A stretch of DNA of 64,000 bases from an uncultured Actinomycetota bacterium (lineage in GTDB: Bacteria; Actinomycetota; Actinomycetes; Actinomycetales; Microbacteriaceae). The stretch's first letter is position 1. Every line of letters begins with the position of its first letter. The notes beneath the pieces were generated by a model, which worked only from the letters and a program-made list of their open reading frames with translations, did no database searches and had not been told where the DNA came from. The position numbers were made by a program, and so were the translations under genes. Positions 1-64,000 of the stretch are shown here, piece after piece. The DNA lies in the NCBI GenBank assembly GCA_963754635.1, contig CAVWGM010000002.1:127345-191344 (forward strand), in the 5' to 3' direction.

Positions 1-501
1 AGCGGCTCGCCAGTCGGTGATCGCGTCGTCTTGTGCGCGATCCGAGACGGCCTTCAGCACGCGGATCGGCACCCCGAACCGCTCGGCGACCCAGATGTAC
101 GCGTAGGTCTCCATGTCGACCAGGACCGCGCCGAGCGGACGGATGACCCCGACGGCCTCCGAGTCGTCGACGAAGTGGTCGCCGGTGGCGATCGTCACTC
201 CGTCCTGCGCCGTCTCCATGCGCGGCGGCAGCGACACGTGCTGGCCGACGATGCCGTCGATGTCGGTCACATCGTGCTGGATCGCCGCGCCGATCTCGTA
301 GACGTCGGCGTCGAGCCGGGCGTCGATCGCGCCGGCTGTGCCGACCACGACGATCTCGTCGTACTCGGCGGCGTCGAGCGCACGTGTCAGGGCATAGGTG
401 GCCTGCAGCTTGCCGGGGCCGGTGACGAGGCGGTCGAACCCGGGGAGGTCGGCGGGAAAGGCGACGAGTTCGGCATCCAGGGCCGCGACGAGAAGCTTCA
501 C
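1..501 (-). CDS. MTA/SAH nucleosidase-family (nucleoside phosphorylase fold) protein; the 3' end runs off the window
   Basis: Not in the ORF track. GTG start at 499-501 on the complement strand, open to position 1. My translation reads VKLLVAALDAEL..VTGPGKLQATYAL..VVVGTAGAI..VDMETYAYIWVAERFGVPIRVLKAVSD, which matches the GxGK, VGxAG and ME motifs of this fold. Confidence 0.6.
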   Translation of the reverse strand, partial: MKLLVAALDAELVAFPADLPGFDRLVTGPGKLQATYALTRALDAAEYDEIVVVGTAGAIDARLDADVYEIGAAIQHDVTDIDGIVGQHVSLPPRMETAQDGVTIATGDHFVDDSEAVGVIRPLGAVLVDMETYAYIWVAERFGVPIRVLKAVSDRAQDDAITDWRAA

Positions 502-611
502 CGGTCCATTCTCGCCGGGTCGCCTGGGCGTTGCCCCGGTGAGGGGGCGTGCGTCAGCGAGCCGGGTCTGGGGCGGAGCCCCAGAAGACTCAGTGCTCGG
601 GATGCCGCGGC

Positions 612-2096
612 TCACCGCCCTCGCAGCGACATGGGTCCCAACACCGGGCGCCGCCGGTCACGGAGCCACCGGGCTGCGCCGGCGCGCCGCTCTTCGCGGG
701 TCGAGAAGCGATAGCGGTAGGACACGGCGCGCACCCACCGCGGCCGCTCGCCGGCGAACGGGTCCCCAGCCAGGAGGCGCAGGGTCGCGGCATCCGCTTC
801 CAGCAGTCGCACCAGGAACAGCGTGAACCAGTCCTCGAGCGAGCGGCCGAGCGGCAGGAACCACATCAGCCAGTCCAGCCGCAGGTGGTACGGCGCGAAC
901 TGCCCGGGGATCCGCCGCACATCGCCGGGCTTGCCCTTGAAGGCGTACTCGCGCCAGGTCGCGGCATCCGGATCTTCGTCCGTCGTGCCCTCGACGACGA
1001 TCTCGATGCGCTCCTTCGTCACCGTCCCGAACGCGCCGTAGGCGTTGGCCAGCTGCCATCGGTTGAAGCTCGCATTCATGAGCTGCCGCCGCGCGACGAG
1101 GTTGCGCACCGCCGGCCGGCTCAGCACGAGGTAGAGCACGCCGACCGCCGATGTCACCAGCAGCCAGGGGAGCGGCATCCCGTCGACGGTCCACGGCGGA
1201 TCCTGCAGCGGCGGCGCGACAGGAGAGCCGATTCCCGGCAACCCGATGGCTGAGAAGGCCAGCACGACGGTGGCCCAGTTGAGCCACGCGAAGTTGCCCG
1301 TCAGGATGAGCCAGAGCTGGGTCGCGATGACGATGCCCGCCGCGACGGCTCCGATGAGCGCCGGGACCGGCCCGGGCATCCACAGGCCCAGCAGCGGCGC
1401 GAACAGGAACCACGGCACGACGAGCTGCGCGAAATGGTTGCCGATGACCTCGCCCTTGTGGAACCACCGCGGCAGCAGGTGCGCCTGCCGGCTCAAAGGC
1501 CCTGGCATCGGCTGCGTCTCGTGGTGGTAGATGAGCGCCGTGAGATCGCGCCACTCCCTGCCGCCGCGGATCTTGATCATGCCGGCGCCGAACTCGAGTC
1601 GGAACACGAGCCACCACATCAGCACGATCACGACGGTGGGCGGCGGCTCGGCGGCCGATCCGAGGAACGCGGCGAGGAACGCCGCCTCGAGCAGCAGCAT
1701 CTCCCACCCGAAGCCGTAGAAGGTCTGGCCGATGCTGACGATCGACATATATCCGAGCCACAGGGCGAGGTAGCAGACCATCGGGGCCCACGGCGTGAAC
1801 AGCTGCGGGATGCCGCAGACCAGCGCCGCCGCGACGGCGATGCCCGCCCCGCAGAGGATGGCCAGGCGTCGGTCGGTGTACTCGACGAGACGGAAGAGCG
1901 TAGGGCGCAGGAGGCGGCCGCGCGGCGACGTGCGCGCCCACTGCAGCAGTTCGGGGGCAGGAAGCAGACCGTGCTCGCCGAGGAGCGGGCGGAACTGATT
2001 CAGCGTCGAGACGAAGGCGACGAGGTACAGCACGGCGATCCCGCGCTGGAGGACCTCGCGGGCGATCCCGAAGTCGACTGCCGCGAACCCGTCCAT
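612..2096 (-). CDS. Lipase maturation factor (LMF1)-family polytopic membrane protein
   Basis: ORF 612..2132, with multiple TM segments. The N-terminus DFGIAREVLQRGIAVLYLVAFVSTLNQFRPLLGEHGLLP is typical of bacterial LMF-family proteins. I prefer ATG 2096 (GACGAT box 6 nt upstream); GTG 2132 is the alternative. Confidence 0.7.
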   Translation of the reverse strand: MDGFAAVDFGIAREVLQRGIAVLYLVAFVSTLNQFRPLLGEHGLLPAPELLQWARTSPRGRLLRPTLFRLVEYTDRRLAILCGAGIAVAAALVCGIPQLFTPWAPMVCYLALWLGYMSIVSIGQTFYGFGWEMLLLEAAFLAAFLGSAAEPPPTVVIVLMWWLVFRLEFGAGMIKIRGGREWRDLTALIYHHETQPMPGPLSRQAHLLPRWFHKGEVIGNHFAQLVVPWFLFAPLLGLWMPGPVPALIGAVAAGIVIATQLWLILTGNFAWLNWATVVLAFSAIGLPGIGSPVAPPLQDPPWTVDGMPLPWLLVTSAVGVLYLVLSRPAVRNLVARRQLMNASFNRWQLANAYGAFGTVTKERIEIVVEGTTDEDPDAATWREYAFKGKPGDVRRIPGQFAPYHLRLDWLMWFLPLGRSLEDWFTLFLVRLLEADAATLRLLAGDPFAGERPRWVRAVSYRYRFSTREERRAGAARWLRDRRRPVLGPMSLRGR

Positions 2097-2220
2097 GCCC
2101 CCATCGTCACGACGAGATCGGGCGCCTGCCACGCACTTGCGGCGACACGGCCCGGGCGGTAGCGGACCGCCCCCTGCGGCCCATCTGTCGGGGCAGGCGC
2201 AGTCCGCGGCATCCGCTCGG

Positions 2221-4275
2221 CTACTCCTCGACGAGCTCGGGCAGCGCGGCCTTGAGCTCCGCGATCCACACGTGGGCGTTGCCGTCCGAGGGGGCGCGCC
2301 AGTCGCCGCGCGGCGACAGCGACCCCGCCGGTGAGACCTTGGGCCCGTTCGGGATGGCCGAGCGCTTGAACTGCGCGAACGCGAAGTAGCGCTGCAGGAA
2401 CACCTGCAGCCACTTCGCCACCGCGGCCAGGTCGTACGCGAAGCGGTCCTCGGCGGGGAAGCCGGGCGGCCAGGCGCCGGAGTCCTTGTCGCCCCAGGCC
2501 TGCCACGCCAGGTACGCGATCTTCGACGGCCGGAAGCCGAAGCGCAGCACGTGGTAGAGCGCGAAGTCGTGCAGCGCGTAGGGACCGATGCGGTCCTCGG
2601 TCGACTGCAGCCTGCCGTCCTGACCGGCCGGGACGAGCTCGGGCGAGATCTCGGTGTCGAGCACCGACTGGAGCACGGCGGCCTCGGCGTTGTCCACGCC
2701 CTCGCGGTGCGCGATCACCCAGCGGATGACGTGCTGGATCAGCGTCTTGGGCACGCCGGCGTTGACGGCGTAGTGGCTCATGTGATCGCCGACGCCGTAG
2801 GTCGCCCAGCCGAGGGCCAGCTCGGAGAGGTCGGACGTGCCGATCACCATGCCGCCGTGCTGGTTGGCCAGGCGGAAGAGGAAGTCGGTCCGGATGCCGG
2901 CCTGCACGTTCTCGAAGGTCACGTCGTAGACCGGCTCGCCGCCGGCGAACGGATGCTTGATGCCCTGCAGGATCTCCGTCGCCGCGGGACGGATGTCGAT
3001 GGTCTCGATCGAGGCGCCGACCGACTCGGCCAGCGCGATCGCGTTCGACTTGGTGTGGTCGCTCGTGGCGAACCCCGGCATCGTGTACGCCAGGATGTCG
3101 CTGCGCGGCCGCCCCATGCGGTCCATGGCGCGCGCGACGACCAGGAGCGCGTGGGTGGAGTCGAGCCCTCCGCTCACGCCGATCACCGGCTTGGGCCCGC
3201 CGATGGACTGCATCCGCTGGACGAGGCCCGAGACCTGGATGTTGAAGGCCTCGTAGCAGTCCTGAGCCAGACGCGCGGGGTCGTCGGGGACGAACGGGAA
3301 GCGGTCGAGCGCTCGCCGCAGGCCGACGTCCGTCGCGGGCGGGTCGAGCTCGAAGTGCACGACCCGGAACTGCGGGTCGTGCGTCCGGCGGTTGTCGTCG
3401 AAGGTTCCCTGCCGGAGGCGGTCCTGCCGCAGCCGGTCGAGATCGACGTCGGCGACCGAGCGTCGCGGGCCGTCGGGGAAGCGCTCGGTCTCGGCGAGCA
3501 GGTTGCCGCCCTCGTAGATCATGGTCTGGCCGTCCCACGACACGTCGTTCGTGGACTCGCCCATGCCCGCCGCCGCGTACGCGTAGGCCGCGAGGCAGCG
3601 CAGCGACTGCGACTTGCACAGGTCCTTGCGGTCCTCGGCCCGCGCGATCGTGATCGGGCTGCCGCTGAGGTTGAGCAGGACGGTGGCGCCGGCCAGCGCG
3701 GCGCCGGCCGACGGCGGGATGGGCACCCAGACGTCCTCGCACACCTCGGCGTGCACGACGAGGCCGGGCACGTCGATCGCCTCGAACAGCAGATCCGGTC
3801 CGAACGGCGCTTCGAGCTCGCCGACCCGGATGTACTCGCCGGCCTGGTCGTCGCCCGCCGCGTACCAGCGGCGCTCGTAGAACTCGCGATAGTTCGGCAG
3901 ATACGACTTGGGGGCGACGCCCAGCAGCTCACCGCGGTGGATCACGACCGCGCAGTTGTAGAGACGGTTGCGGTGGCGCAGCGGAGCGCCCACGACGAGC
4001 ATCGGGAAGAGATCGGCGGATGCCTCGACCAACCGTGCGATCGCGCCCTCGACGGCGTCGAGCACGGCATCCTGCATCACCAGATCCTCGAGCGAGTACC
4101 CGGTGAGGCACAGCTCGGGGAACACCGCGACCGCGACGGAGTCGGCGTCGCACTCGCGCGCCGTGGCGAGGACCGCGTCGGCGTTGGCCGCGGGGTCGGC
4201 GATCGTGAGCGGGATCGTGCACGCCGCCACGCGAGCGAACCCGTGCCGGTACGCGCTCTCGAAGGGAAGGCTCAT
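2221..4275 (-). CDS. nadE: Glutamine-dependent NAD+ synthetase
   Basis: N-terminal CN-hydrolase domain plus a C-terminal NAD synthase domain with the SGGxDS loop (VIGVSGGLDSTHAL). ATG at 4275 (MSLPFESAYRHGF). The upstream part of ORF 2221..4539 is low-complexity. Confidence 0.95.
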   Translation of the reverse strand: MSLPFESAYRHGFARVAACTIPLTIADPAANADAVLATARECDADSVAVAVFPELCLTGYSLEDLVMQDAVLDAVEGAIARLVEASADLFPMLVVGAPLRHRNRLYNCAVVIHRGELLGVAPKSYLPNYREFYERRWYAAGDDQAGEYIRVGELEAPFGPDLLFEAIDVPGLVVHAEVCEDVWVPIPPSAGAALAGATVLLNLSGSPITIARAEDRKDLCKSQSLRCLAAYAYAAAGMGESTNDVSWDGQTMIYEGGNLLAETERFPDGPRRSVADVDLDRLRQDRLRQGTFDDNRRTHDPQFRVVHFELDPPATDVGLRRALDRFPFVPDDPARLAQDCYEAFNIQVSGLVQRMQSIGGPKPVIGVSGGLDSTHALLVVARAMDRMGRPRSDILAYTMPGFATSDHTKSNAIALAESVGASIETIDIRPAATEILQGIKHPFAGGEPVYDVTFENVQAGIRTDFLFRLANQHGGMVIGTSDLSELALGWATYGVGDHMSHYAVNAGVPKTLIQHVIRWVIAHREGVDNAEAAVLQSVLDTEISPELVPAGQDGRLQSTEDRIGPYALHDFALYHVLRFGFRPSKIAYLAWQAWGDKDSGAWPPGFPAEDRFAYDLAAVAKWLQVFLQRYFAFAQFKRSAIPNGPKVSPAGSLSPRGDWRAPSDGNAHVWIAELKAALPELVEE

Positions 4276-4378
4276 GCCCCCAGTCTGGCAGGAGGCCTCC
4301 CGTCGCGGTGCGATTGCGCTTCCGCCGCGGCGGGCGCTGTCCGTGCCCGCGGCTAGGGTCGTGGGGAAAGGCGGTGGC

Positions 4379-7300
4379 ATGCGGTACATCCCGGGAGACG
4401 GCGGCGGCGAGGGCCGGGTCGTCTGGAGCGCGAGCGACCTCAAGGCGGCGGCCGAGTGCGAGTTCGCGTGGGTGCGTTCGATCGACGCGAAGCTGGGGCG
4501 CATCGCGGCGGTCGAAGAGCCCGAGGACGAGACGCTCAAGCGCGCGGGGCGACTGGGAACGGCGCACGAGCTGCGCGCGCTCGCCGACTACGTCGAGCGG
4601 TTCGGGAGCGGCGTCGTCGAGATCCCCGAGACACGCTCTTCGGATGCCGCGGCCCTCGCGGACGCGGTCGCGCTCACCAACGCGGCGCTCGCCTCGAGCG
4701 CCGACGTCGTCTATCAGGCGGCGTTCTCGACGAGTGACTTCGTCGGCTTCGCCGACTTCCTCGTGCGCGACGCCGACGGACGCTGGATCGTGCAGGACAC
4801 CAAGCTCGCGCGTCATGCGCGGGTGACGGCGCTCATGCAGCTGGCGGCATACGTCGATCAGCTCGACCGGCTCGGCGTGCCGCGCTCTGATCGCGTGGAA
4901 CTGCTGCTCGGCGACGGCTCCACGAGCGTGCATGAGGTGGACGACATCCTGCCGGTGTTCTCCCTCCGTCGCGAGCGCCTCGCGGCTCTCATCGCCGATC
5001 GGCGCCTCGACCTCGGGGTCGACGGCGCGCCCATCGCCTGGGGCGACCCGCGCGGCGACCTCGATGTCGTCGCGTGCGGACGCTGCGCGACGTGCGACAG
5101 CGAGGTCGTGGCCTCGCGCGATCTGCTGCTGGTCGCGGGCATGCGGCCGGTGCAGCGCGATCGCCTGCGCGCCGCCGGGCTCGGCACCATCGAAGAGCTG
5201 GCGGTCGCCCCGAGCGGACCGGCCGGTATGAACCCCGACACGTTCGGCATGCTGCGCACGCAGGCCCGGCTGCAGCTGCAGAGCCCGGCCGGTACTCCGC
5301 CGCTCGTGTCGGCGCCGTCGACGAACGGCAGCCTCCCGCCGGTGCCCACCTTCGAGGTCGTGGCCCCGACCGCACTGGGCGCCCTGCCCCGGCCCGATCA
5401 CGGCGACCTCTTCTTCGACTTCGAGGGCGACCCGCTGCACACCGAGGCGCAGCCGCCGGGGCACGAGGGCGAGCCGGTGCAGTGGGGCATCGACTACCTG
5501 TTCGGATGGGTGGACGACCGTGAGCAGTACACCGCGCTGTGGGCGCATTCCTTCGCGGACGAGAAGCGCGCACTCGAGACGTTCCTCGACATCGTGAATC
5601 TGCGCCGTCAGCAGCATCCGGGCATGCACATCTACCACTACGCCCCCTACGAGCCGACGCATCTGCTGGCGATGGCCGCCCGTCACGGCGTGCGCGAGAG
5701 GGACGTCGACCGGCTGCTGCGCGACGGCGTGTTCGTCGACCTCTACCCGATCGTGCGCCGCGCCCTGCGGGTGGGGTCGCGCTCGTACTCGATCAAGAAG
5801 CTCGAGCCGCTGTACATGGGCGACGAGGTGCGCACCAGCGACGTGCAGAAGGGCGACGACTCGATCGTGCGCTACGTCGAGGCCCGCGCGCTCGACGCCG
5901 ATGGCGACGGGGCCGCAGCCCGCGCGATCTTCGACGACCTGGCCGACTACAACCGCTACGACTGCGTGTCGACGCGGCGCCTCCGCGACTGGCTCGTCGA
6001 TCGTGCGCGCGCCGCTCAGCTGCTGCCGTCGCCGAACCCCGAACCCGACGAGCGCGCCTACGAGCCGTCGCCCCGGGCTCTGGCGCTCGAGCGGCTGGCC
6101 GGCGGGCACCCGGCCGACTCCGGTGAGTCGCAGGCGCTTCGGCTGGGCGCCGCGGCGATCGACTACTACCCCCGTGAGTCCAAGTCGTTCTGGGCGACGC
6201 ACTTCCTGCGCCTGCGCGAGCCCGTGCCGCTGTGGGAGGAGACGCGCGACGTCGCCGTGATCGATCCGACCCGCTCCCGCGTGGTCGAGGACTGGCACTT
6301 CCTCGAGAGCGGCCGCGGGGGTGAGCGCCGCACGATCGAGCTGCGAGGCGAACTGGCTCCCGGCACGCGCTTCGGCGTGGGCACCAACCCCTTCGTCCTC
6401 TACGAGCTGCCCGCGCCCTATCCCTCCGACGCTGCGCCGCGGTGGATCCACTCCGCGCGCTCGGTGACGGTGCTCGAGGTCCTCGACGACGGCGTCCTCG
6501 TCGAAGAGACTGCGGTCGACGGCGTGACGTGGTCGCCCTTCCCCCTCGCGATCACCCCGGCCGCGCCGCCGTCCGCCGGCAACCAGCAGTCCGCGATCGA
6601 CGCGTGGGCCGACGGGGTCATCGACGCGGCGCCGCACCTGCCGTCCGACCCGGCGACGGACATCCTCCGACGCCGCCCCCCGCGCACGATGGCCGGCAGC
6701 CTGCCCGCATCAGCCGGTGACGACGTCGAGGCCATCGTGCGCGCCGTCCAGGATCTCGACCGGAGCTATCTCGCGGTGCAAGGTCCTCCCGGCACGGGGA
6801 AGACCTACGTCGGGTCGCACGTGATCGCGCGGCTGGTGAAAGAGCGCGGCTTCAAGGTCGGCGTGGTGGCCCAGTCGCATGCCGTGGTCGAGAACATGCT
6901 CGAGCGCATCGTCGCGGCCGGCGTCGCGAAGGAGCTCGTGGGCAAGGCGCCCAAGACCGAGCGCGAGACGTACTGCTTCACCCCGCTCCGCAAGAACGGC
7001 GTCGCGGAGTTCGCCGCCCAGCACGCGGAGTCCGGATTCGTCTTCGGCGGCACCGCGTGGGACTTCAGCCACGAGGGCCGCATTCCGCGCGGCAGCCTCG
7101 ACCTGCTCGTCATCGATGAGGCCGGGCAGTTCTCGCTGGCCTCGACGATCGCGGTGTCGCTGGCCGCGCCGCGCCTGCTGCTGCTCGGCGACCCCCAGCA
7201 GCTTCCGCAGGTGAGCCAGGGCACCCACCCGGAACCCGTCGACACGTCGGCGCTGGGCTGGGTGATGGACGGCGCCGACGTCGTCCCGCCCGAGTACGGC

Positions 7301-7934
7301 TACTTCCTGGCGCGCACGTGGCGCATGCACCCGGCCGTCGCCGAGCCGGTGTCGAAGCTGTCCTACCGCGGCGAGCTCGCCGCGCACCCGTCGACGGCTC
7401 TGCGGGCACTCGAGGGGATCGAGGCCGGGGTGCGGCCGGTACCGCTTCGCCACCGGGGGAATGCGACGCAGTCGCGCGAAGAGGCGGCGGCCGTCGTCGA
7501 CATCGTGCGCGACGTCATCGGCGCGCGCGTGGTCCGACATCCGGGTCGAGGACGACGGCGTGACCACGCCCGTCGCACCGCGCCCATTGGAGCAGAGCGA
7601 CATCATCGTCGTGACGCCCTACAACGCGCAGCAGGTCGCGGTCGAGGAGGCGCTCGCCGCCGCCGGGTTCGCCGAGGTGCCGGTCGGGACGGTCGACAAG
7701 TTCCAGGGTCAAGAGGCAGCGGTCGCGATCGTGTCCCTGGCGGCGTCGTCCGGGCGCGATGCACCGAGAGGGCTGGAATTCCTGCTGCTGCGGAATCGGC
7801 TCAACGTCGCCATTTCGCGTGCCAAGCACACCGCGTACCTCGTGCACTCTCCTGCGCTGCTGGACGACCTGCCCCGGACGCCCGAGGGAGTCGCACGGCT
7901 GAGCGGATTCGCCCGCCTGGTCGGCCGGGTCTGA
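4379..7934 (+). pseudogene. RecB-like (PD-(D/E)XK, TM0106-type) nuclease fused to a DNA2/NAM7-like SF1 helicase; the reading frame is broken near 7520-7530
   Basis: N-terminal nuclease region with a Cys cluster (CGRCATC) and a YHYAPYEP segment. Helicase motifs GPPGTGKT, DEAGQ, GDPQQLPQV and WRMHP lie in the frame of ORF 3968..7945. Motifs V and VI (TPYNAQ, VDKFQGQE, NVAISRAK) lie in the frame of ORF 7461..7934. Confidence 0.8.
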
Positions 7935-7975
7935 GCCGCGCGTAGACTCGCGCACAGCGACCCCAGGAGGAATCC

Positions 7976-8387: not shown

Positions 8388-8423
8388 GTGCGGCATCCGT
8401 TCGGCGAGGGGCGGATGCCGCAC
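8388..8423. terminator. 12-13 bp GC-rich hairpin between convergent genes, built from an inverted pair of the GCGGCATCC word
   Basis: GTGCGGCATCCG (8388-8399), a 12-nt loop, then CGGATGCCGCAC (8412-8423). There is no clear U-tract. Confidence 0.5.
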
Positions 8424-9195: not shown

Positions 9196-9678
9196 GTGGG
9201 GTCGTACGCTCGTGCTGTGACCTTCGAGCCCGCTGACGTCGTCGCGATGGACCTCGCGCTCGCTCTGGCGGAGACGGCGGGCGAGGCGGGGGACGTTCCC
9301 GTCGGTGCAGTGGTGACGGATGCCTCGGGCACGGTGATCGGCCGGGGGCGCAACCTCCGCGAAGTCACCCACGACCCCACCGCCCACGCCGAGGTCGTCG
9401 CGCTGCGCGAGGCCGCGGCATCCCTCGCCTCGTGGAACCTCGAGGGCTGCACACTCGTGGTCACTCTCGAGCCCTGTGTCATGTGCGCCGGGGCGGTGCT
9501 GCAGTCGCGGGTTTCCCGCGTGGTCTTCGGCGCGTGGGACGACAAGGCCGGCGCGGCGGGATCCGTGTACGACGTGGTGCGCGATCGACGGCTGCCGTAC
9601 CGAGCCGAGGTCGTCGGCGGGCTGCGCGAGGCGGAGGCGTCCGCTCTGCTGCGGAGCTTCTTCGACGCGAGGCGCTGA
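9196..9678 (+). CDS. tadA: tRNA-specific adenosine deaminase
   Basis: CDA zinc motifs HAEVVAL and PCVMCAGA. The start is uncertain: GTG 9196 or ATG 9247. Confidence 0.9.
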   Translation: MGSYARAVTFEPADVVAMDLALALAETAGEAGDVPVGAVVTDASGTVIGRGRNLREVTHDPTAHAEVVALREAAASLASWNLEGCTLVVTLEPCVMCAGAVLQSRVSRVVFGAWDDKAGAAGSVYDVVRDRRLPYRAEVVGGLREAEASALLRSFFDARR

Positions 9679-11490: not shown

Positions 11491-11539
11491 GGCATGAGTC
11501 TACGGATCCCGCGGGCCGCGGCATCCGGGTTGACGAGGC

Positions 11540-15795: not shown

Positions 15796-16200
15796 ATGGC
15801 GGACATCTTCGACGTGATCGCGGACGGCACGCGGCGCGACATCCTGCGACTTCTCCTCGAGCGCGCCACCGCCGGCGAACGGGGCACCAGCGTGTCGCAC
15901 ATCGTGCACGAACTCGGTGCGAGTCAGCCGACGGTGTCCAAGCACCTCAAGGTGCTGCGCGAAGCGCACCTCGTCTCGGTGCGCGAAGAGGGGCAGCATC
16001 GGTACTACAGCCTGTCGGCCGAGCCGCTCGACGAGGTGGACGACTGGCTGGTCCCGTTCCTCGGCGACGACGACGCTCCGCAGTACGCCGGCTCAGGGCT
16101 GACGGACTCGGCCGCGCACGCCGCCGACGTGGTGGGCCGTGCCGCGGCATCCGCCAAGCACGCCATCGAGAGCGCCTTCAAGAAGCTCCCCGGCCGCTGA
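15796..16200 (+). CDS. ArsR/SmtB-family transcriptional regulator
   Basis: Winged HTH: HIVHELGASQPTVSKHLKVLREAHLV. It is divergent from the trk operon, with only a 34-nt spacer. Confidence 0.85.
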   Translation: MADIFDVIADGTRRDILRLLLERATAGERGTSVSHIVHELGASQPTVSKHLKVLREAHLVSVREEGQHRYYSLSAEPLDEVDDWLVPFLGDDDAPQYAGSGLTDSAAHAADVVGRAAASAKHAIESAFKKLPGR

Positions 16201-18968: not shown

Positions 18969-19064
18969 GAGGGCGACGCCTCATGGTTCTCACCAGTCAC
19001 AGCGGTTTACACGCGCCCCTCGGGCGCTCTACAGTGTGGACAGCACTCTGGGGAAAGGACTGAC

Positions 19065-19435: not shown

Positions 19436-19452
19436 GCGGCACAACGACACCA

Positions 19453-20118: not shown

Positions 20119-20127
20119 GAACCTGAC

Positions 20128-49839: not shown

Positions 49840-49920
49840 TGGGACTCCGCCCCACACCCCCGGCTTGCTGACGCGCGCCGTTCCGAGTTCGGCAGAAGCG
49901 GATGCCGCGGCCGGCGCGGC

Positions 49921-56102: not shown

Positions 56103-56113
56103 ATCGGCAGAAT

Positions 56114-56139
56114 CGCATGTGAACTCAGGTTCACATGCG
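56114..56139 (+). terminator. 11-bp hairpin immediately after the DUF885 stop codon
   Basis: CGCATGTGAAC, loop tcag, then GTTCACATGCG. Confidence 0.45.
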
Positions 56140-56192
56140 CGCTGGTCGCCGGACGGGCAGGCCCTGCGCCCGCATCGTGACGTCTGCGGGCG

Positions 56193-56392
56193 TGTGAACA
56201 AGAACGCACATGGGCGCCGGGGTTGTTCGCGCGGGAATGTGAGCACGAAGGCACGTGGGCGCCGAGGTTGATTGGCGCGGAATGTGAGCACGAAGGCACG
56301 TGGGCGCCGAGGCTGATTGGCGCGGAATGTGAGCAGGAAGGCACATGGGCGCCGGGGTTGTTCGCGCGGGAATGTGAGCACGAAGGCACATG
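56193..56392. repeat. 45-bp tandem direct repeat, 4.4 copies, two sequence variants in the order A-B-B-A-partial
   Basis: Units start at 56193, 56238, 56283, 56328 and 56373. Consensus: TGTGAGCACGAAGGCACRTGGGCGCCGRGGYTGWTYGSCGCGGGAA. Confidence 0.9.
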
Positions 56393-56512
56393 CAGATTCG
56401 AGCGAGTGCCGGCCTGAAAGCGCACCGCGCGCGAGCGATGCGAACCGGAGACGATGCTCGCACCCGAATCGCACTGCGACCGGGCGCGCTCAACGGGCGC
56501 CGAGCCTGTCGA

Positions 56513-57763
56513 CTAGGCCCGCGTCCGGCCGCGATCGTCGCGCACGACCACGCCGCCCCGCATCACGAAGTCGATCTCACGCAGGGCGCCGATCCCGGCG
56601 GTGGGGTCTCCCGGCATCGCGATCAGATCCGCGGCGAGGCCGGGCCGCAGCGTGCCGTAGACCGCCTCGTCCCCGAGCCAGCGCGCCGGTGCCGCCGTGG
56701 CGGCCTGCACGACGTCCGCCGCAGCGAGACCGCCGGCCTCCATGTGCTCGAGCTCGCGCACGATGGCCGACGTGCCCTCGAAATCCCAGTACGGCGGCAT
56801 GTCGCTGCCCAGGAGCACTTCCACGCCTGCCTCGAGGGCGTGCCGGTACGACTCCCGATGCCGTGCTGCCGCCCCGAGCGACCGTTCCTGCATCCAGGGC
56901 GGCACGCCGAGATCGTCGAAGAACGCCTGGGCGCTGGTGACCACGAGCGTCGGGACGAGTGCGCACGAGCGCTCCGCCATCAGACGAGCGACTTCCGGCG
57001 TCAGCTCATAGCCGTGCTCGACGCAGTCCAGGCCGAGCTCGACTGCTTCGGCGATGATGGCGGCTGGTCCCGCGTGGGCCGTGACCTTGCGTCCCCAGGC
57101 ATGCGCGGTAGAGATCGCCGCTGCCATCTCGGCCCGGCTGAGCTGGGCCGTCGCGATCTGCTCGTGCTCTCCGGCGATCCCGCCCGAGATCATGAGCTTG
57201 ATGAGATCGGCGCCCAACGCGATCTGACCGCGCACCCCGCGGGCGAACTCATCAGCACCGTCGCACTCGATCGTGTCTTCGGTGTCGTGACCGTGTCCGC
57301 CGGTGCAGCACAGCGCGCGCCCTGCTGTCCGAATGCGCGGACCCGCGGTCCAGCCGGCCTCGATCGCGCGACGCAGTGCGAAGTCCGCACCGGCCTTCTC
57401 GGCCACGCAGCGCACGGTCGTCACACCGGCCAGCAAGGTCCGTCGCGCGGCATCGGCCATGTAGAGCGCGAGGTCATGAGGTCCGAGAGCGCTCACCGCG
57501 TCTCCGCCCGGCCCGGGAAGCGAGAGCGAGAAGTGATTGTGCATGTTGACCAGCCCCGGCATGACGAAAGCGCCGCCGAGGTCGAAGGTCGTGGGCGTCG
57601 CGCGCACGGATGCCGCAGCCACCACGTCCCTGATCGTGCCGTCCTCGATGACCAACGCCAGACCATCGCGGGGTTCGGGTCGGTGACCGTCGACCAGCTG
57701 CAGGTTCGTCAGGGTGAGGCTGTCGTGCACGGGCAGGCGGATCGGCGCCTTCGGATCGCTCAC
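56513..57763 (-). CDS. Amidohydrolase-family metallo-hydrolase
   Basis: HxH motif (LVNMHNHF), later His and Asp ligands, and a TIM barrel. GTG 57763 overlaps the menF stop codon (GTGA). Confidence 0.85.
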   Translation of the reverse strand: MSDPKAPIRLPVHDSLTLTNLQLVDGHRPEPRDGLALVIEDGTIRDVVAAASVRATPTTFDLGGAFVMPGLVNMHNHFSLSLPGPGGDAVSALGPHDLALYMADAARRTLLAGVTTVRCVAEKAGADFALRRAIEAGWTAGPRIRTAGRALCCTGGHGHDTEDTIECDGADEFARGVRGQIALGADLIKLMISGGIAGEHEQIATAQLSRAEMAAAISTAHAWGRKVTAHAGPAAIIAEAVELGLDCVEHGYELTPEVARLMAERSCALVPTLVVTSAQAFFDDLGVPPWMQERSLGAAARHRESYRHALEAGVEVLLGSDMPPYWDFEGTSAIVRELEHMEAGGLAAADVVQAATAAPARWLGDEAVYGTLRPGLAADLIAMPGDPTAGIGALREIDFVMRGGVVVRDDRGRTRA

Positions 57764-59052
57764 GCCAGGGCGTCCACGATCGGGCGGAACTTGACGCGGG
57801 TTTCGAGCAGCTCGGTCTCGGGGTCGCTGCCGGCCACGATCCCGGCGCCGGCGTGGGCGACCACCGGGATGGTCCCCGGCGCGGGCGGGGCTCCTCCCGG
57901 AACCTCGCCGATCTGGGCGCACCGCAGCGCGATCGCCCACTCGCCGTCGCCGGCGGCATCGACCCACCCGACGGGTCCGGCATAGCGCCGGCGGTCGAAA
58001 GGCTCGATCCTCCGGATGACCTCGATCGCGGCATCCGTCGGGGTACCTGCCACAGCGGCGGTGGGGTGCAGCGCCGCGACCAGGTCGAGCGCAGAGGCAT
58101 GGTCGGCGATCTCGCCGGCGACGTCGGTGGCGAGATGCCACAGGTTCGGAAGCTCGAGCGCGAACGGCTCGTCGTCGGCGTTCAGCGTGCTGGTGTGCGG
58201 GGCGAGGGAGTCGAGCACGCTGCGCACGGCGTACTGGTGCTCGTCGAGGTCCTTTCCGCTGTGCGCCAGGCGGAAGGATGCCGCGGCGTCGTCGTCCGAG
58301 TCGGCTCCGCGGGGGAACGTGCCTGCCAGCACGCGGGCGGTCACGTCGCCGCCGGACACCGTGACGAGCGTCTCGGGGCTCGCGCCGATGAGCCCGTCCA
58401 CCGCGAAGGTCCAGGTGTCGAGGTAATCGCGCGAGAGAGCCCGCACGAGGCGCCGCAGATCGGCGCCGGCGGGCACCGTGCCCACGAGATCGCGCGCGAG
58501 GACGACCTTGCCCACTTCGCCGGCAGCGATCGCGTCGAGCCCGGCGCGCACCGCCGCCTGATACCCCTCGGGATCGAGGTCGCCCGGGCCGAGCGTGGCC
58601 GACCAGTAGGGTCCGTAGGGGACAGGCTCGACGGACGGATCGGCGCGATCTGTGTCGACCGTGCGGATGCGGGTGATCCACGCCCGGCCGTCGCGCCGGC
58701 CGACGATGGCCTGCGGCACCATCAGACGGCTCGAAGCCTGTGACCGGGGATCGAACACGAGCGCACCGAATCCCACCAGGCCGGTGCCGTGCAGCCCGAC
58801 CGGATCATCGATCTCCGCCGCGGCGGCCAGCGCTCGCCACACGTCGGCAGCCGACTCGGCGGGCGTACCGGAACCGCCGCCCGTTCCGCCGGACTGGTAC
58901 TCGGCGACAACGCCTCCCACTCCCACGATGCCCTCGCCCCGGCGCAGCCACGCGAGCGGTGACCGCGCATCGCTGAACGCGAGGATGTCTTCGACGGGAT
59001 CGATCTCTCGCGTCTGCACCATCAGGCGGGGCGGGCGGCGCGGGAGGGTCAC
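57760..59052 (-). CDS. menF: Isochorismate synthase
   Basis: Chorismate-binding domain: HPTAAVAGTP and GWVDAAGDGEWAIALR. Confidence 0.9.
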   Translation of the reverse strand: MTLPRRPPRLMVQTREIDPVEDILAFSDARSPLAWLRRGEGIVGVGGVVAEYQSGGTGGGSGTPAESAADVWRALAAAAEIDDPVGLHGTGLVGFGALVFDPRSQASSRLMVPQAIVGRRDGRAWITRIRTVDTDRADPSVEPVPYGPYWSATLGPGDLDPEGYQAAVRAGLDAIAAGEVGKVVLARDLVGTVPAGADLRRLVRALSRDYLDTWTFAVDGLIGASPETLVTVSGGDVTARVLAGTFPRGADSDDDAAASFRLAHSGKDLDEHQYAVRSVLDSLAPHTSTLNADDEPFALELPNLWHLATDVAGEIADHASALDLVAALHPTAAVAGTPTDAAIEVIRRIEPFDRRRYAGPVGWVDAAGDGEWAIALRCAQIGEVPGGAPPAPGTIPVVAHAGAGIVAGSDPETELLETRVKFRPIVDALA

Positions 59053-59650: not shown

Positions 59651-60403
59651 GTGGCAGCCCACCCCCCAGAGCACGAGCCGAACCGCGCGGATCTGCGTAA
59701 GGACCCCGCACGCGTGAGCGGGATGTTCGACCAGGTGGCGCCCGCCTACGACCGCACGAACACCGTGCTGAGCATGGGCAACGACCGCTTCTGGCGTGCC
59801 GCCACGACGCGCGCAGTCGCGCCGCGCCCAGGTGAGCGCATCCTCGACCTGGCCGCCGGGACCGGCGCCTCGAGTGTCGCGCTCTCCCGCAGTGGCGCGA
59901 CCGTGGTCGCCGCCGATTTCTCGCCCGGCATGATCGCCGAAGGCGAGCGCCGCTACGGCCGCTCGGCGCCGGGTGGCGGCATCCGGAATCTGTCCTTCAT
60001 CGAGGCCGACGCGACCGATCTGCCGTTCGAGGACGGCGAGTTCGACGCCGTCACGATGTCGTTCGGTCTCCGCAACGTCAACGAGCCCAAGAAGGCGCTC
60101 GGCGAGCTGCTGCGCGTGACGCGGCCCGGCGGACGGCTGGTCGTCTGCGAGTTCTCCCACCCGCCTTCGCGTACGTTCAACGGGCTCTACCGCTTCTACA
60201 ACGACCGCGTCCTGCCCGTGGTGGCCAAGACCATGAGCTCCAACGCCGACGCCTACGACTACCTGAACGAGTCGATCCGCGACTGGCCGGATCAGCGCGA
60301 GCTGTCGGCCTGGATCCGCCGGGCGGGGTGGACGGATGTCGCGTACCGCAACCTGTCGATGGGCATCGTCGCTCTGCACCGAGCCGTCAAGCCCGGCCGG
60401 TAG
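59651..60403 (+). CDS. menG: Demethylmenaquinone methyltransferase
   Basis: UbiE/MenG family: YDRTNTVLSMG and LDLAAGTG. Confidence 0.9.
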   Translation: MAAHPPEHEPNRADLRKDPARVSGMFDQVAPAYDRTNTVLSMGNDRFWRAATTRAVAPRPGERILDLAAGTGASSVALSRSGATVVAADFSPGMIAEGERRYGRSAPGGGIRNLSFIEADATDLPFEDGEFDAVTMSFGLRNVNEPKKALGELLRVTRPGGRLVVCEFSHPPSRTFNGLYRFYNDRVLPVVAKTMSSNADAYDYLNESIRDWPDQRELSAWIRRAGWTDVAYRNLSMGIVALHRAVKPGR

Positions 60404-60412: not shown

Positions 60413-61468
60413 GTGACTCCCTCAGCGCCGGGCTCGCGCATTGCGGGCAAGCTGGGCCTCTCCGACCGCGTCTTCGCCGGACCGAGGGCTCGCAAGCTGC
60501 TTTCCGCCGTCGAGGCGGGCCTCGCTCGTGTCGACACCGCTCTCGAGAACGAGCTGCGTGTCACGGATTCGCTCGCCGACGCCACCAGCCGCTACCTGTA
60601 CGAAGCCGGCGGCAAGCGCGTGCGGCCCATGCTCGCGCTGCTCACCGCGCAGCTCGGCGACGGGGCGACCGACCGCGTCATCGACGGGGCCACCGCCCTC
60701 GAGATGACCCACCTCGGCTCGCTCTACCACGACGATGTGATGGATGCCGCCGACAAGCGCCGCGGCGTCCCCAGTGCGCACGCCATCTGGGGCAACAACG
60801 TCGCGATCCTCACCGGCGATCTGCTGTTCTCGCGCGCGAGCCAGATCATGGCGCGTCACGGCGAGGGCGCGATCCGCCTCCAGGCCGACACCTTCGAGCG
60901 CCTCGTGCTCGGGCAGATGCACGAGACCGTCGGGCCGAAGGAGGGAGAGGATCGCGTCGCGTTCTACCTCCAGGTGCTCTCCGACAAGACCGGGTCGCTC
61001 ATCGCCGCCGCCGCTCAGGCCGGCGTGGTCTTCTCCGACGGCCCCGAGGAGTACGAGGCCCCGCTGGTCGCCTTCGGGGAGAAGGCCGGCGTCGCCTTCC
61101 AGCTGCTCGACGACGTCATCGACCTCTCTGCCGATCCCGGCGAGACGGGCAAGGTGCCCGGCACCGACCTGCGCGCCGGCGTGCCGACCATGCCGTACCT
61201 CGTGCTGGGGCAGCGCGACGACGCGTCCTCACAGGACCTGCGCGACCGCATCGACGAGGGTGTCGCGCGCATCGCCGACGGCGCCGACCCGGCGATCCTC
61301 GATGACGCGCTCGCCGAGCTCCGCGAGCACGAGGCCACGCAGTCCACCCTCGACCTCGCTCACGCCTGGTCGCGGGAAGCCGTCGACGCTCTCGAACCTC
61401 TCCCCGACGGCGCGGTGCGCGAGGCGCTCACCCGCTTCGCCCAGGCCGTCGCCGACCGCTCGAGCTGA
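60413..61468 (+). CDS. Polyprenyl diphosphate synthase (menaquinone side chain)
   Basis: DDxxD motifs LYHDDVMD and QLLDDVID. There are tandem GTG codons at 60410 and 60413. Confidence 0.9.
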   Translation: MTPSAPGSRIAGKLGLSDRVFAGPRARKLLSAVEAGLARVDTALENELRVTDSLADATSRYLYEAGGKRVRPMLALLTAQLGDGATDRVIDGATALEMTHLGSLYHDDVMDAADKRRGVPSAHAIWGNNVAILTGDLLFSRASQIMARHGEGAIRLQADTFERLVLGQMHETVGPKEGEDRVAFYLQVLSDKTGSLIAAAAQAGVVFSDGPEEYEAPLVAFGEKAGVAFQLLDDVIDLSADPGETGKVPGTDLRAGVPTMPYLVLGQRDDASSQDLRDRIDEGVARIADGADPAILDDALAELREHEATQSTLDLAHAWSREAVDALEPLPDGAVREALTRFAQAVADRSS

Positions 61469-61488: not shown

Positions 61489-62862
61489 ATGACCAAGCTC
61501 CGACTGGCGATCGTGGGGGCGGGCCCCGCGGGCATCTACGCCGCGGACATCCTGCTCAAGGCCGAGCGCAAGTTCGACGTCTCGATCGATCTGTTCGAGC
61601 AGCTGCCGGCGCCGTACGGGCTGGTCCGATACGGCGTCGCTCCCGATCACCCGCGCATCAAGGGCATCATCACGGCGCTGCGCGAGGTGCTCGATCGCGG
61701 CGACATCCGCCTGTTCGGCAATGTGCGCTTCGGCGAGGACATCACCCTCGACGATCTCAAGCACCACTACAACGCGGTGATCTTCGCCACGGGAGCGATC
61801 CGCGACACCGGCCTCGACATCCCCGGAATCGATGCCGCCGGCTCATACGGTGCCGCCGACTTCGTGAGCTGGTTCGACGGGCACCCCGACGTCCCGCGCG
61901 AGTGGCCTCTCGACGCCGAGTCCGTCGCCGTGATCGGCAACGGCAACGTGGCCCTCGACGTCGCGCGCATGCTCGCCAAGCACGCTGAGGACCTGCTGCC
62001 GACGGAGATCCCCGCCAACGTCCACGCCGGACTCGTGGCCAGCACCGTCACCGACGTCCACGTCTTCGGTCGCCGCGGACCCGCCCAGGTGAAGTTCACC
62101 CCCCTCGAGCTGCGCGAGCTCGGCGAGCTGCGCGATGTCGACATGGTCGTCTACGACGAGGACTTCGACTACGACGAGGCCTCCCGGGCCGCGATCGCCA
62201 GCAACAAGCAGGTGCTCGTGATCGATCGCGTGCTGCAGTCGTGGCGGCAGCGCCCGAGCGTGAACAACGCCGGGGGAGCGGCATCCCGTCGTCTTCATCT
62301 GCACTTCTATGCGAAGCCCCTGGAGATCGTGACGGATGCCGAGGGCCGCGTCGCGGCATTCCGTTACGAGCGCACGCGCCCAGACGGCGAGGGCGGCGTC
62401 GTCGGCACCGGCGAGATCCGTGAGGTCGCCATCCAGGCGCTCTACCGTGCCGTCGGATACTTCGGCTCGCCGCTGCCCGGCGTGCCGTTCGACGAGCGTC
62501 ACGGCGTGATCCCCAACCACGAGGGCCAGGCGCTCCACGAGGAGTCCAACGAGCGCGTCTCCGGTGTGTACGCGACGGGCTGGATCAAGCGCGGCCCGGT
62601 GGGGCTCATCGGCCACACGAAGTCGGACGCGATGGAGACCGTGCGTCACATCATCAACGACCAGGGCTCGTGGTGGCAGCCGGTCGATCCGTCCGAGGCG
62701 GCGATCCCCGCACTGCTCGCCGAGCGCGGCGTGCGCTGGACCGACCTGACCGGCTGGCACCGGCTGGACCAGCACGAGGTCGGCCTCGGCGCGCCGCACG
62801 GACGTGCGCGCGTGAAGGTCGTGGCGCGCGACGAGATGGTCGCGATCTCGCGCGGCGAGTAG
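61489..62862 (+). CDS. fprA: FprA/adrenodoxin-reductase-like ferredoxin--NADP+ reductase
   Basis: GAGPAG FAD motif and IGNGNVALD NADP motif. Confidence 0.85.
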   Translation: MTKLRLAIVGAGPAGIYAADILLKAERKFDVSIDLFEQLPAPYGLVRYGVAPDHPRIKGIITALREVLDRGDIRLFGNVRFGEDITLDDLKHHYNAVIFATGAIRDTGLDIPGIDAAGSYGAADFVSWFDGHPDVPREWPLDAESVAVIGNGNVALDVARMLAKHAEDLLPTEIPANVHAGLVASTVTDVHVFGRRGPAQVKFTPLELRELGELRDVDMVVYDEDFDYDEASRAAIASNKQVLVIDRVLQSWRQRPSVNNAGGAASRRLHLHFYAKPLEIVTDAEGRVAAFRYERTRPDGEGGVVGTGEIREVAIQALYRAVGYFGSPLPGVPFDERHGVIPNHEGQALHEESNERVSGVYATGWIKRGPVGLIGHTKSDAMETVRHIINDQGSWWQPVDPSEAAIPALLAERGVRWTDLTGWHRLDQHEVGLGAPHGRARVKVVARDEMVAISRGE

Positions 62863-62880
62863 GGCGATCCCGGCGGGCGC

Positions 62881-63990
62881 TCACGGCCGGGACGCGGCAT
62901 CCAATGTCATGCGGTTCTTGCCGGCGTTCTTGGAGTCGTACATCGCGCCGTCCGCTCGTATGAGGAGGCCTTCGCCGGTCGGCTTCGGATCGATCTCGGG
63001 GCGGTAGAGGGCGACGCCGACACTCACCGATGCCGCGATGACGCCGGCGCTGACCGCGATGGGGCCCTGGGTCATGGTGAGGATCCGTTCGGCGATGGCG
63101 GTCGCCGCCGCAGCGTCGGCGTCGGCGCAGATCGCGACGAACTCGTCCCCTCCGATGCGACCGACGACGTCGCCGGCGCGCACGCCGTTGCGCAGGCGCG
63201 TCGCGAGCTCGACCAGGACGGCGTCTCCGGTGGCGTGCCCGAACTGATCGTTGACGGACTTGAACCCGTCCACGTCGAGGAACAGCACGGCGAGGGGGCG
63301 TCCGGTGACGGCGGCGCGAGCTATCGCCTCATCGAGGCTCTGCTCGAGCAGCTGCCGGTTGGCCACGCCGGTGAGCTGGTCGTGGAGGGCGAGATACGCC
63401 AGCCGCCGCTGCAGCCGAACGCGGACGAGGGTCTGCGACGCCTGGCGTCCGAGCGCTCGCTGCAGGTCGAAGAACTGGTCGTCGAACTCGGTGCGCCGCC
63501 CGAAGAAGCAGACCAGGATGCCCAGGCGCCGATCCTCGTCGAGCAGCGGAGTGACGCTGAGAGACGCGAGTCTCACCCGGCGCATGGCGGCGGCGAGCTC
63601 GGGGAACTCCTCTCGAGCGCTGGTCTCCTCGACGACCGTCACGCGCGGCGTGTAGCGCAAGGCGAGCACGGGCGGCACCTGCCCCTCGAGAGGGTTGGTG
63701 CCGGCGACGGAGGCGAGCTCGCCGTCGTCGCCGATCAGCATCACCAGAGTGTGCTTGGCCGTGAACGCGTCGCGCGCGACCTGGGCGAACGAGGAGGCGA
63801 CGTCCTCGTCGCTCGCGCTGACGCCGAACGTCGAGGAGATGTCCTGCAGGATCCGGACCCGCGCCTCGGAGCTCTCCGCGGCGCGTCGCGCGTGCAGCAG
63901 CTCTGTCTCGTACTGAAGGCGCTCCCGGGCGTTGAAGAGCGCGGTCCGGATCATCTTCGTCTCACGATCGAGCGACGAGTTCACGAGCAT
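62881..63990 (-). CDS. GAF-GGDEF diguanylate cyclase; the 5' end may lie beyond the window
   Basis: Active-site RIGGDEF. The frame stays open upstream of ATG 63990 to the window edge. Confidence 0.85.
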   Translation of the reverse strand: MLVNSSLDRETKMIRTALFNARERLQYETELLHARRAAESSEARVRILQDISSTFGVSASDEDVASSFAQVARDAFTAKHTLVMLIGDDGELASVAGTNPLEGQVPPVLALRYTPRVTVVEETSAREEFPELAAAMRRVRLASLSVTPLLDEDRRLGILVCFFGRRTEFDDQFFDLQRALGRQASQTLVRVRLQRRLAYLALHDQLTGVANRQLLEQSLDEAIARAAVTGRPLAVLFLDVDGFKSVNDQFGHATGDAVLVELATRLRNGVRAGDVVGRIGGDEFVAICADADAAAATAIAERILTMTQGPIAVSAGVIAASVSVGVALYRPEIDPKPTGEGLLIRADGAMYDSKNAGKNRMTLDAASRP

Positions 63991-64000
63991 GGGCAGCTTC

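Follow-up and report, generated by a model that had tools for sequence, protein, structure and literature searches.

What keeps a single nine-letter word at close to one copy per kilobase on both strands of a high-GC actinobacterial chromosome? The question is raised by a stretch of 64,000 nucleotides (hereafter the window) from an uncultured member of the Microbacteriaceae (assembly GCA_963754635.1, contig CAVWGM010000002.1, positions 127,345 to 191,344), in which GCGGCATCC occurred as 58 exact copies, 33 on the plus and 25 on the minus strand. Dinucleotide-preserving shuffles gave 2.57 copies (standard deviation 1.56, maximum 7), an enrichment of about 22-fold that agrees with the original prediction, made from the letters of this 64-kb window, of a hyper-abundant word more than 20 times above expectation. 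Our results show that the enrichment belongs to the DNA duplex and not to the proteins or the mRNAs. As for its meaning, we put forward as a tentative possibility that high-GC Microbacteriaceae (Microbacterium, Agromyces, Leifsonia, Cryobacterium and relatives) carry an uptake or self-recognition sequence with lineage dialects, which would be the first outside the Neisseriaceae and Pasteurellaceae.

Of all 9-mers in the window GCGGCATCC was the most frequent; the runner-up unrelated to it was present 35 times. Its 27 single-mismatch variants together numbered 78, with 0 to 9 copies each, and the earlier estimate of about 20 eight-of-nine variants was thus too low. Copy number nevertheless fell sharply with any one mismatch, although changes from A/T to G/C should be commoner at 71% GC. 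When the 30-nt flanks were aligned, preferences were detected at positions -4 (G in 46 of 58 copies), -3 (G, 40 of 58), -1 (C, 40 of 58) and +1 (G, 36 of 58); these were weak, the sequence beyond them was that of the background, and the same four preferences reappeared in 34 intergenic copies pooled from several loci. Because the information is confined to -4 to +1, the unit measures about 13 nt (GGnC-GCGGCATCC-G) and is no part of a longer repeat. A longer element, including one of the repetitive extragenic palindromic (REP) or miniature inverted-repeat transposable element (MITE) type, was rejected, given the absence of flank conservation past these positions and the location of 85% of the copies in coding DNA, where they occupy five or six frames. 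A maximal-order Markov decomposition for a core sub-word was uninformative, since nested sub-words share the excess multiplicatively; the comparison with outgroups succeeded where this did not.

Could composition, codon usage, an alanine-rich proteome or a hidden repeat family give rise to such a word? Shuffling synonymous codons with proteins and codon usage kept yielded 15.8 +/- 2.3 copies (maximum 22 in 500 trials), against the 58 observed. A dinucleotide- and codon-aware null had been named beforehand as a refutation test, and the enrichment survived it: a stricter swap procedure, which also kept the strand-symmetrised dinucleotide counts exact, gave 8.45 +/- 2.46 coding copies and at most 15 in 60 trials, where 50 were observed. 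Both nulls are conservative, since the codon usage and the proteins that they preserve already include the word's own contribution.

With reading frames assigned by a GC-periodicity Viterbi model, the 50 coding copies (26 sense and 24 antisense) were spread over five frames, among them those originally proposed: Asp-Ala-Ala (DAA, 20 copies), Ala-Ala-Ser (AAS, 15), Gly-Ile (GI, 9), Met-Pro (MP, 4) and Arg-His-Pro (RHP, 2). The word makes use of codons that are scarce in the window, as had been stated, GCA representing 5.9% of the Ala codons and GAT 19% of the Asp codons. At Asp-Ala-Ala sites GAT GCC GCG was found in 18 of 46 cases (1.8 expected) and the preferred-codon version GAC GCC GCG only once (7.4 expected), while 15 of the 29 Ala-Ala-Ser sites were written GCG GCA TCC (0.16 expected). 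The use of GAT also depended on the codon that follows, reaching 24-43% before GCC and codons starting with C and only 3-13% before GGC, ATC, GAG, GAC and GCG; the word accounts for only part of this dependence.

Distribution among relatives and phages

Comparison with related Microbacteriaceae, which had been proposed as a check, was made on MetH-anchored loci from 80 species. GCGGCATCC outranked all other 9-mers in many Microbacterium species and in Agromyces terreus, and nine word-rich loci, the window included, contained 226 copies in 254 kb (0.89 per kb). The group of Cellulosimicrobium, Oerskovia and Promicromonospora, of equal GC, contained 8 copies in 235 kb (0.034 per kb), and Arthrobacter/Pseudarthrobacter 20 in 217 kb (0.092 per kb). 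No hyper-abundant word was detected in the MetH-anchored loci of the low-GC Microbacteriaceae Aquiluna, Rhodoluna and Aurantimicrobium.

One copy, at 40182 in metH (CGC GGC ATC CG, Arg-Gly-Ile-Arg; about position 10590 in the MetH-anchored loci), is retained through protein constraint, as its presence in many relatives shows. The conserved site probably gives much of the Arthrobacter count, judging from the copies there, which lie on the plus strand only; if so, the counts overstate the background outside the family.

Variants of GCGGCATCC at positions 1-4 were still enriched over the outgroups and those at positions 5-8 were at outgroup level; the 7-mer GGCATCC reached 1.86 per kb in word-rich loci against 0.27 per kb in outgroups. 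These results led us to identify GGCATCC(G) as the core. Around GGCATCC, lineages carry dialects that are each 17-50 times above shuffles: GC-GGCATCC (GCGGCATCC) in Microbacterium; GGCATCCGTC (GGCATCC-GTC) in Leifsonia and also in Cryobacterium cheniae, with 10 copies observed and 0.19 expected; GCATCCGCT (GCATCC-GCT) in Cryobacterium sp. Y50, 19 against 0.51; and GGCATCCGC (GGCATCC-GC) in Agromyces mediolanus, 18 against 1.07. The word with this core is family-wide in high-GC Microbacteriaceae, with lineage-specific flanks.

Copies were also kept better than comparable DNA. At orthologous positions in word-rich genomes 75-80% identical, 46 of 121 copies (38%) were exact, against about 16% of arbitrary 9-mers (hand-pooled counts), and a 90% relative had kept 12 of 17 exactly, against 42% of controls. 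Where the A:T pair of the word falls on a third codon position, it was kept in 45% of cases (33 of 73) in relatives at 77-80% identity and in 75% (6 of 8) in the 90% relative, the figures for other A/T third positions being 16.9% and 32%, respectively. Copies also turn over, since the presence or absence of sites is patchy across species.

The word has left an imprint on proteins as well. Tripeptides of all six word frames exceeded their composition expectation in the word-rich set and not in outgroups, with observed/expected ratios of 1.73 vs 1.04 for DAA, 1.46 vs 0.98 for AAS, 4.6 vs 1.4 for RHP, 4.7 vs 1.95 for GCR, 1.46 vs 0.38 for GIP and 2.2 vs 0.21 for MPR; the control tripeptides EAA, AAT, AAD and SAA were not inflated in the word-rich set. 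Findlay and Redfield reported that the tripeptides encoded by the uptake signal sequence (USS) of Pasteurellaceae and the DNA uptake sequence (DUS) of Neisseriaceae are approximately doubled.

Together, the codon tests, the strict null, the tripeptides and the retention of the A:T pair strongly support the earlier proposal that a force acts on the DNA word rather than on protein. An artefact can draw on the Ala-rich proteome, on Gly-Ile sites where codon usage forces GGC ATC, and on at least one copy, that at 40182 in metH, which is held by protein constraint and present in outgroups too. However, the word persists when dinucleotides, codon usage and proteins are held fixed in the null, uses rare codons, is enriched in intergenic DNA and is scarce in outgroups of equal GC and Ala richness, and as regards a hidden repeat family, similarity between copies ends at -4 to +1. 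With three nulls, rare-codon use and outgroup densities against it, we consider the artefact refuted and give it practically no chance.

The enrichment was lacking in the phages examined. Three Microbacterium phages (the temperate Min1 and the lytic Skylord and Franklin22) contained 2 copies in 127 kb, with 3.5 expected under a first-order Markov model, and their GGCATCC:GGCGTCC ratio was 0.54, against 4.2 in chromosomes of host type, which stood in for the phages' own hosts. Thirty Min1-like contigs of the IMG/VR database with GC above 0.64 had 0.106 copies per kb, between phage and chromosome, and some of them may include host flanks; their identifiers suggest that many are prophages of isolate genomes. 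Within this set (L091, L092, L093, L095 and L117) some contigs had 4 copies in 11-21 kb and ratios of GGCATCC to GGCGTCC up to 12:1, and these copy-rich contigs may represent ameliorated prophages or contain host flanks.

These intermediate contigs are what slow amelioration of resident DNA predicts, and they bear on a mutational origin of the word, in which a family-wide cytosine methyltransferase makes GGACGCC/GGCGTCC hypermutable (C to T), or a sequence-specific mismatch repair converts near-cognates to the word, leaving it as a functionless by-product. In both main frames the word is indeed the preferred-codon version with one CpG transition, GCGGC[G]TCC to GCGGC[A]TCC. The parent, GCGGCGTCC, was depleted in the window (2 copies, 7.3 expected) and at expectation in phages and outgroups, the deficit of GAC GCC GCG noted above (1 against 7.4) points the same way, and GGCGTCC was among the 7-mers most depleted relative to outgroups (ratio 0.44). 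The supply of parents is nevertheless too small. Word and parent together amount to 0.97 per kb in word-rich loci against 0.17-0.20 per kb in outgroups; the deficit of the 7-mer parent, 0.57 per kb, covers about one third of the word excess of 1.59 per kb; and the Ala-Ala-Ser frame holds 15 GCG GCA TCC, although word and parent together should number about 1.3 there. A deamination "graveyard" of GCGGCGTCC was rejected on this ground, the parent being depleted but its supply 5-10 times too small. Furthermore, a single-site hotspot leaves unexplained the information at positions 1-4 and at flanks -4, -3, -1 and +1, and the short-patch-repair effects known to us shift 4- and 5-mers by less than about 2-fold, not a 9-mer by more than 20-fold. 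The original prediction had listed methylation or short-patch repair as an alternative; in its simple one-parent form it fails quantitatively, and we regard an origin of this kind as unlikely. GACGTC and CGACGTC (the AatII site) were also at about half their outgroup frequency.

Strand, spacing and position of the copies

Plus and minus copies in the nine loci (23-64 kb each) numbered 33:25, 14:7, 8:12, 10:7, 13:8, 6:12, 10:11, 10:15 and 13:12. The ratio never went beyond 2:1, and the hand-computed chi-square against 1:1 was 9.0 on 9 degrees of freedom; replication-strand skew was thus judged from strand counts per locus rather than from complete replicons. In coding DNA the pooled copies were 98 sense and 94 antisense. 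Gaps between copies were Poisson-like (coefficient of variation 0.99), and both even and clustered spacing were rejected.

Intergenic copies, most of them at the 3' ends of genes, were 34 of 226 (15%) within the 6.9% of DNA that is non-coding, a density 2.4 times that of coding DNA, and they were distributed as 18 in 6.0 kb of convergent, 12 in 5.2 kb of tandem and 3 in 5.3 kb of divergent spacers. Close pairs were inverted in 10 of 11 cases, forming strong hairpins, several of them in coding DNA; about 9 of 10 are independent, because one pair recurs at an orthologous site in two genomes. An inverted pair lies at 32920-32968, 40 bp apart in the 5' part of the gene at 32861-33505, and is conserved at the orthologous positions 5910-5958 of a Microbacterium locus (L004). 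Two inverted pairs had been described as embedded in terminators. Both exist and form strong hairpins; only that at 8388-8423 is intergenic and terminator-like, the other, at 25433-25456, being located inside a ResB-like gene. The former folds as RNA with -40 kcal/mol (z = -4.3) and without a U tract, and is a candidate bidirectional terminator.

Exact search confirmed all 33 plus-strand starts of the original list. Its minus-strand part was mostly right, with two starts displaced by one nucleotide (1808 and 57608, given as 1809 and 57607) and two copies, at 29014 and 29793, missed. The copies and inverted pairs of the window are the following:

600-608, minus: sense in a minus-strand gene, CGC GGC ATC CCG (RGIP)
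787-795, plus: antisense in a minus-strand gene, GAT GCC GCG (DAA)
961-969, plus: antisense, GAT GCC GCG (DAA)
1172-1180, plus: antisense, ATG CCG C (MP)
1808-1816, minus: sense, GGC ATC C (GI)
2206-2214, plus: intergenic, directly 3' of the NAD synthetase gene
4642-4650, minus: antisense, GAT GCC GCG (DAA)
8388-8423, no strand: inverted word pair between the convergent DUF3467 gene and upp, stem of about 16 bp
8390-8398, plus: intergenic, left arm of the hairpin, convergent genes
8413-8421, minus: intergenic, right arm of hairpin 8388-8423
9415-9423, plus: sense, GCG GCA TCC (AAS)
11518-11526, plus: intergenic, tandem genes
12989-12997, minus: antisense, GAT GCC GCG (DAA)
13461-13469, plus: sense, GCG GCA TCC (AAS); the 90% relative L081 carries GCGGCGTCC there
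16144-16152, plus: sense, GCG GCA TCC (AAS)
17043-17051, minus: sense, GGC ATC C (GI)
17536-17544, plus: antisense, GAT GCC GCG (DAA)
18386-18394, plus: sense, CGG CAT CC (RHP)
19823-19831, plus: intergenic, 4 nt past a stop codon
20341-20349, minus: intergenic, convergent genes, 3' of lysS
21596-21604, plus: antisense in lysS, GAT GCC GCG (DAA)
22040-22048, plus: antisense, GAT GCC GCA (DAA)
25433-25456, no strand: perfect palindrome CGGATGCCGCGGCCGCGGCATCCG with two words, coding, reads SDAAAAASA
25434-25442, minus: antisense in the ResB-like gene, GAT GCC GCG (DAA)
25447-25455, plus: sense in the ResB-like gene, GCG GCA TCC (AAS)
26873-26881, minus: antisense, GAT GCC GCG (DAA)
29014-29022, minus: sense, GCG GCA TCC (AAS); absent from the original list
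29162-29170, plus: antisense, GAT GCC GCG (DAA)
29416-29424, minus: sense, GCG GCA TCC (AAS)
29793-29801, minus: sense, GGC ATC C (GI); absent from the original list
30033-30041, minus: sense in the MMPL gene, GCG GCA TCC (AAS)
30554-30562, plus: antisense, ATG CCG C (MP)
31703-31711, plus: antisense, ATG CCG C (MP)
32920-32928, minus: antisense, GAT GCC GCC (DAA); inverted partner of 32960, 40 bp off, same gene
32960-32968, plus: sense, GCG GCA TCC (AAS)
33558-33566, minus: sense, GCG GCA TCC (AAS)
34206-34214, minus: sense, GCG GCA TCC (AAS)
34271-34279, plus: antisense, ATG CCG C (MP)
35910-35918, minus: sense, GGC ATC C (GI)
36340-36348, plus: antisense, GAT GCC GCG (DAA)
36493-36501, plus: antisense, GAT GCC GCG (DAA)
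39543-39551, plus: about 25 nt upstream of the metH start, probably intergenic, coding in the frame model
40182-40190, plus: sense in metH, CGC GGC ATC CGT (RGIR)
44002-44010, minus: sense, GGC ATC C (GI)
44337-44345, plus: antisense, GAT GCC GCG (DAA)
44445-44453, minus: sense, CGG CAT CC (RHP)
45879-45887, plus: antisense, GAT GCC GCG (DAA)
48365-48373, minus: antisense, GAT GCC GCG (DAA)
49900-49908, minus: intergenic, convergent genes
51944-51952, plus: sense, GCG GCA TCC (AAS)
53937-53945, plus: antisense, GAT GCC GCG (DAA)
54725-54733, minus: antisense, GAT GCC GCG (DAA)
55218-55226, plus: sense, GCG GCA TCC (AAS)
57608-57616, minus: sense, GCG GCA TCC (AAS)
58028-58036, plus: antisense, GAT GCC GCG (DAA)
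58276-58284, minus: sense, GCG GCA TCC (AAS)
59976-59984, plus: sense, GGC ATC C (GI)
60742-60750, minus: antisense, GAT GCC GCC (DAA)
62278-62286, plus: sense, GCG GCA TCC (AAS)
62894-62902, plus: intergenic, convergent genes

The strand counts bear most directly on a Chi-like role, in which AdnAB, RecBCD or a defence nuclease would read the word at DNA ends and pass from degradation to recombination, so that the chromosome would be spared and word-free phage DNA degraded. Chi (e.g. GCTGGTGG of E. coli) is, like the word, an over-represented chromosomal self mark with a species-specific sequence, and such a role would fit a word that is strongly over-represented in the chromosome, at chance in phages and specific at family level with lineage variants; protection of two-ended breaks would also call for both orientations. 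However, the Chi sites known to us are co-oriented with replication at about 3:1, and none of the nine loci showed co-orientation, 2:1 being the most extreme ratio. Chi measures 5-8 nt, against 9-13 specified positions for GCGGCATCC, and neither the 3' intergenic placement nor the inverted pairs are predicted by this role. Besides, we know of no Chi for an actinobacterial AdnAB or RecBCD. The absence of strand skew thus disfavours the Chi-like alternative raised originally, which we judge improbable, and with it a role like that of the FtsK-orienting polar sequences (KOPS). KOPS, SpoIIIE recognition sequences (SRS) and skewed octamers are likewise short and over-represented, but have a strong leading-strand polarity, which switches at the origin and at dif, whereas the word is distributed about 50:50 when pooled; it is also slightly C-rich rather than G-rich.

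The same orientation independence, together with the uniform distribution and Poisson spacing, would suit an array of weakly selected binding sites for a chromosomal protein that recognizes double-stranded DNA in architecture, segregation, repair or silencing, as would the retention of copies above matched neutral sites and the conservation of the core across the family. The nearest analogue is the highly iterated palindrome HIP1 (GCGATCGC) of cyanobacteria, which shares with the word its shortness, its lineage-wide density of about 1 per kb and its evolutionary conservation. The role of HIP1 is still debated; its function is only now emerging and has been linked to transformation efficiency. 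HIP1 is, however, palindromic and the target of two methyltransferases, and GCGGCATCC is asymmetric. GCGATCGC itself was present in 19 copies in the window, with 14 expected, and a HIP1-like palindrome was rejected as not enriched. The nucleoid and segregation proteins known to us have tens of specific sites or degenerate binding, none of them with about one site per kb and at least 9 fixed bases. The consensus of the word is too sharp and too long for an array of this type, its sharp fall to single-mismatch neighbours being unlike a typical weight matrix, and an array gives no reason for the avoidance of divergent (promoter) spacers or for inverted pairing. We therefore hold it doubtful that a binding-site array accounts for the word.

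Comparison with known signature words

The data require a fixation bias that is sequence-specific over at least 9 positions of duplex DNA and indifferent to orientation, strong enough to impose rare codons and some amino-acid changes, and acting on the resident chromosome and not on phage DNA. To our knowledge, signature words this strong are known from three lineages only, those of DUS, USS and HIP1, each of which has been informative on the discrimination of self from foreign DNA and on how recombination shapes genomes. We rate GCGGCATCC as belonging with these hyper-abundant words, in a phylum and an envelope type without a known case.

The DUS of Neisseriaceae (AT-GCCGTCTGAA and its dialects) share most of the features described above. 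They are short, non-palindromic and present at about 1 per kb on both strands, with a sharp consensus and lineage dialects around a conserved core; they form inverted pairs at the 3' ends of genes, are scarce in phages, as the word was in the three examined, and shape the tripeptides that they encode. Their dialects are lineage-specific variants and behave like those of the Microbacteriaceae. The USS of Pasteurellaceae (AAGTGCGGT core) likewise combines a 9-bp core with weaker flanks, is used in all frames and approximately doubles its tripeptides. Published copy numbers, 1,892 DUS in Neisseria meningitidis and 1,471 USS in Haemophilus influenzae, are of the same order as 0.89 per kb. As to differences, the sequence and the phylum are others, and the host of the word is a Gram-positive actinobacterium without an outer membrane. 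DUS have a ComP-type receptor and none is known for GCGGCATCC; 15% of its copies are intergenic, against about 65% of DUS in N. meningitidis (34.5% in open reading frames). The genic share of USS in H. influenzae is 65%, against 85% for GCGGCATCC, and USS have AT-rich flanking segments that GCGGCATCC lacks.

Because its statistics match those of DUS and USS, we favour, with reserve and short of an even chance, an uptake or self-recognition word maintained by recombination drive. The resemblance noted in the original prediction holds for density, strand symmetry, consensus, frames, 3' placement, dialects and, in the three phages examined, scarcity in phage DNA; the uptake function is what we infer from it. 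In such a model, a protein of DNA uptake or of the recombination route would prefer word-bearing DNA in Microbacteriaceae hosts assumed to be naturally competent, so that fragments with the word would enter cells and recombine more often. Alleles that acquire it would then spread by molecular drive, perhaps aided by selection for self DNA, and the word would accumulate where its coding cost is low: at synonymous sites despite rare codons, at tolerant residues and in intergenic DNA at 3' gene ends, in which inverted pairs could double as terminator hairpins.

Several points weigh against this reading. We know of no sequence-specific DNA uptake in any Gram-positive bacterium, nor of natural competence established for the Microbacteriaceae. 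The positive evidence is all statistical, and most of it fits any strong sequence-specific fixation bias as well. The frames of USS favour preferred codons, whereas the main frames of GCGGCATCC need the rare GAT and GCA. Close pairs, in contrast to those of DUS, were not in excess (11 gaps of at most 60 bp, 11.7 expected), and apart from phages there was no contrast in density between core and accessory DNA, the word being as frequent (0.70-1.18 per kb) where many relatives align as where no relative does. The only outside hint of uptake is indirect: a Hi-C study found that a Microbacterium population had acquired a free non-conjugative plasmid, and as this plasmid is foreign, it argues against a strict dependence on the word.

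If the uptake reading holds, a DNA receptor that recognizes the word would be expected in the competence or recombination pathway of these Gram-positive bacteria, and natural transformation would be common in a group so far not counted among the competent ones. A fourth case of this kind, in soil- and plant-associated Gram-positive actinobacteria, would make sequence-biased uptake testable beyond two proteobacterial families, and should added words raise transformation efficiency, the genetic tractability of Microbacterium and of Clavibacter-type organisms would improve. The word also predicts an undiscovered sequence-specific DNA reader, and offers a simple marker separating chromosome from phage or foreign DNA in Microbacteriaceae (metagenome binning, prophage calling). 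Even if its origin is mutational, a 9-mer enriched more than 20 times that alters amino-acid usage would be an unusual neutral or selfish reshaping of a proteome. The original statement that no function is described agrees with the full texts searched: neither the word nor its core was described there, nor was an uptake, Chi or over-represented motif of Microbacteriaceae, but these texts cover few papers of subscription journals, so that an earlier description is possible.

Gene content and nearest relatives of the window

The window is ordinary chromosomal DNA, with GC at third codon positions of about 0.9, and encodes metH, lysS, the NAD synthetase gene, upp, tadA and proC, together with ResB/CcsB cytochrome c biogenesis genes, an MMPL transporter and ABC transporters. 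No competence gene is found among its annotated genes, and no match to Rfam families or tRNAs was detected in it, so there is no association of the word with structured RNA. Three segments of 340-550 nt each (18964-19517, 20111-20453 and 56064-56534) show no clear frame in the GC-periodicity model and likewise match no Rfam family or tRNA.

The nearest public relatives, found among contigs encoding exactly the upp protein of the window, are L082 (GCA_049578705.1), 97.9% identical over 11.5 kb, and L081 (GCA_001427145.1, LMGL01000001.1), 90% identical over 19 kb. An open reading frame of 1,223 amino acids on the plus strand (4274-7945) combines a PD-(D/E)XK nuclease, an RNase H-like domain and a superfamily-1 helicase (AAA_11/AAA_30); it adjoins the DUF3467 gene and upp, an arrangement kept in relatives.

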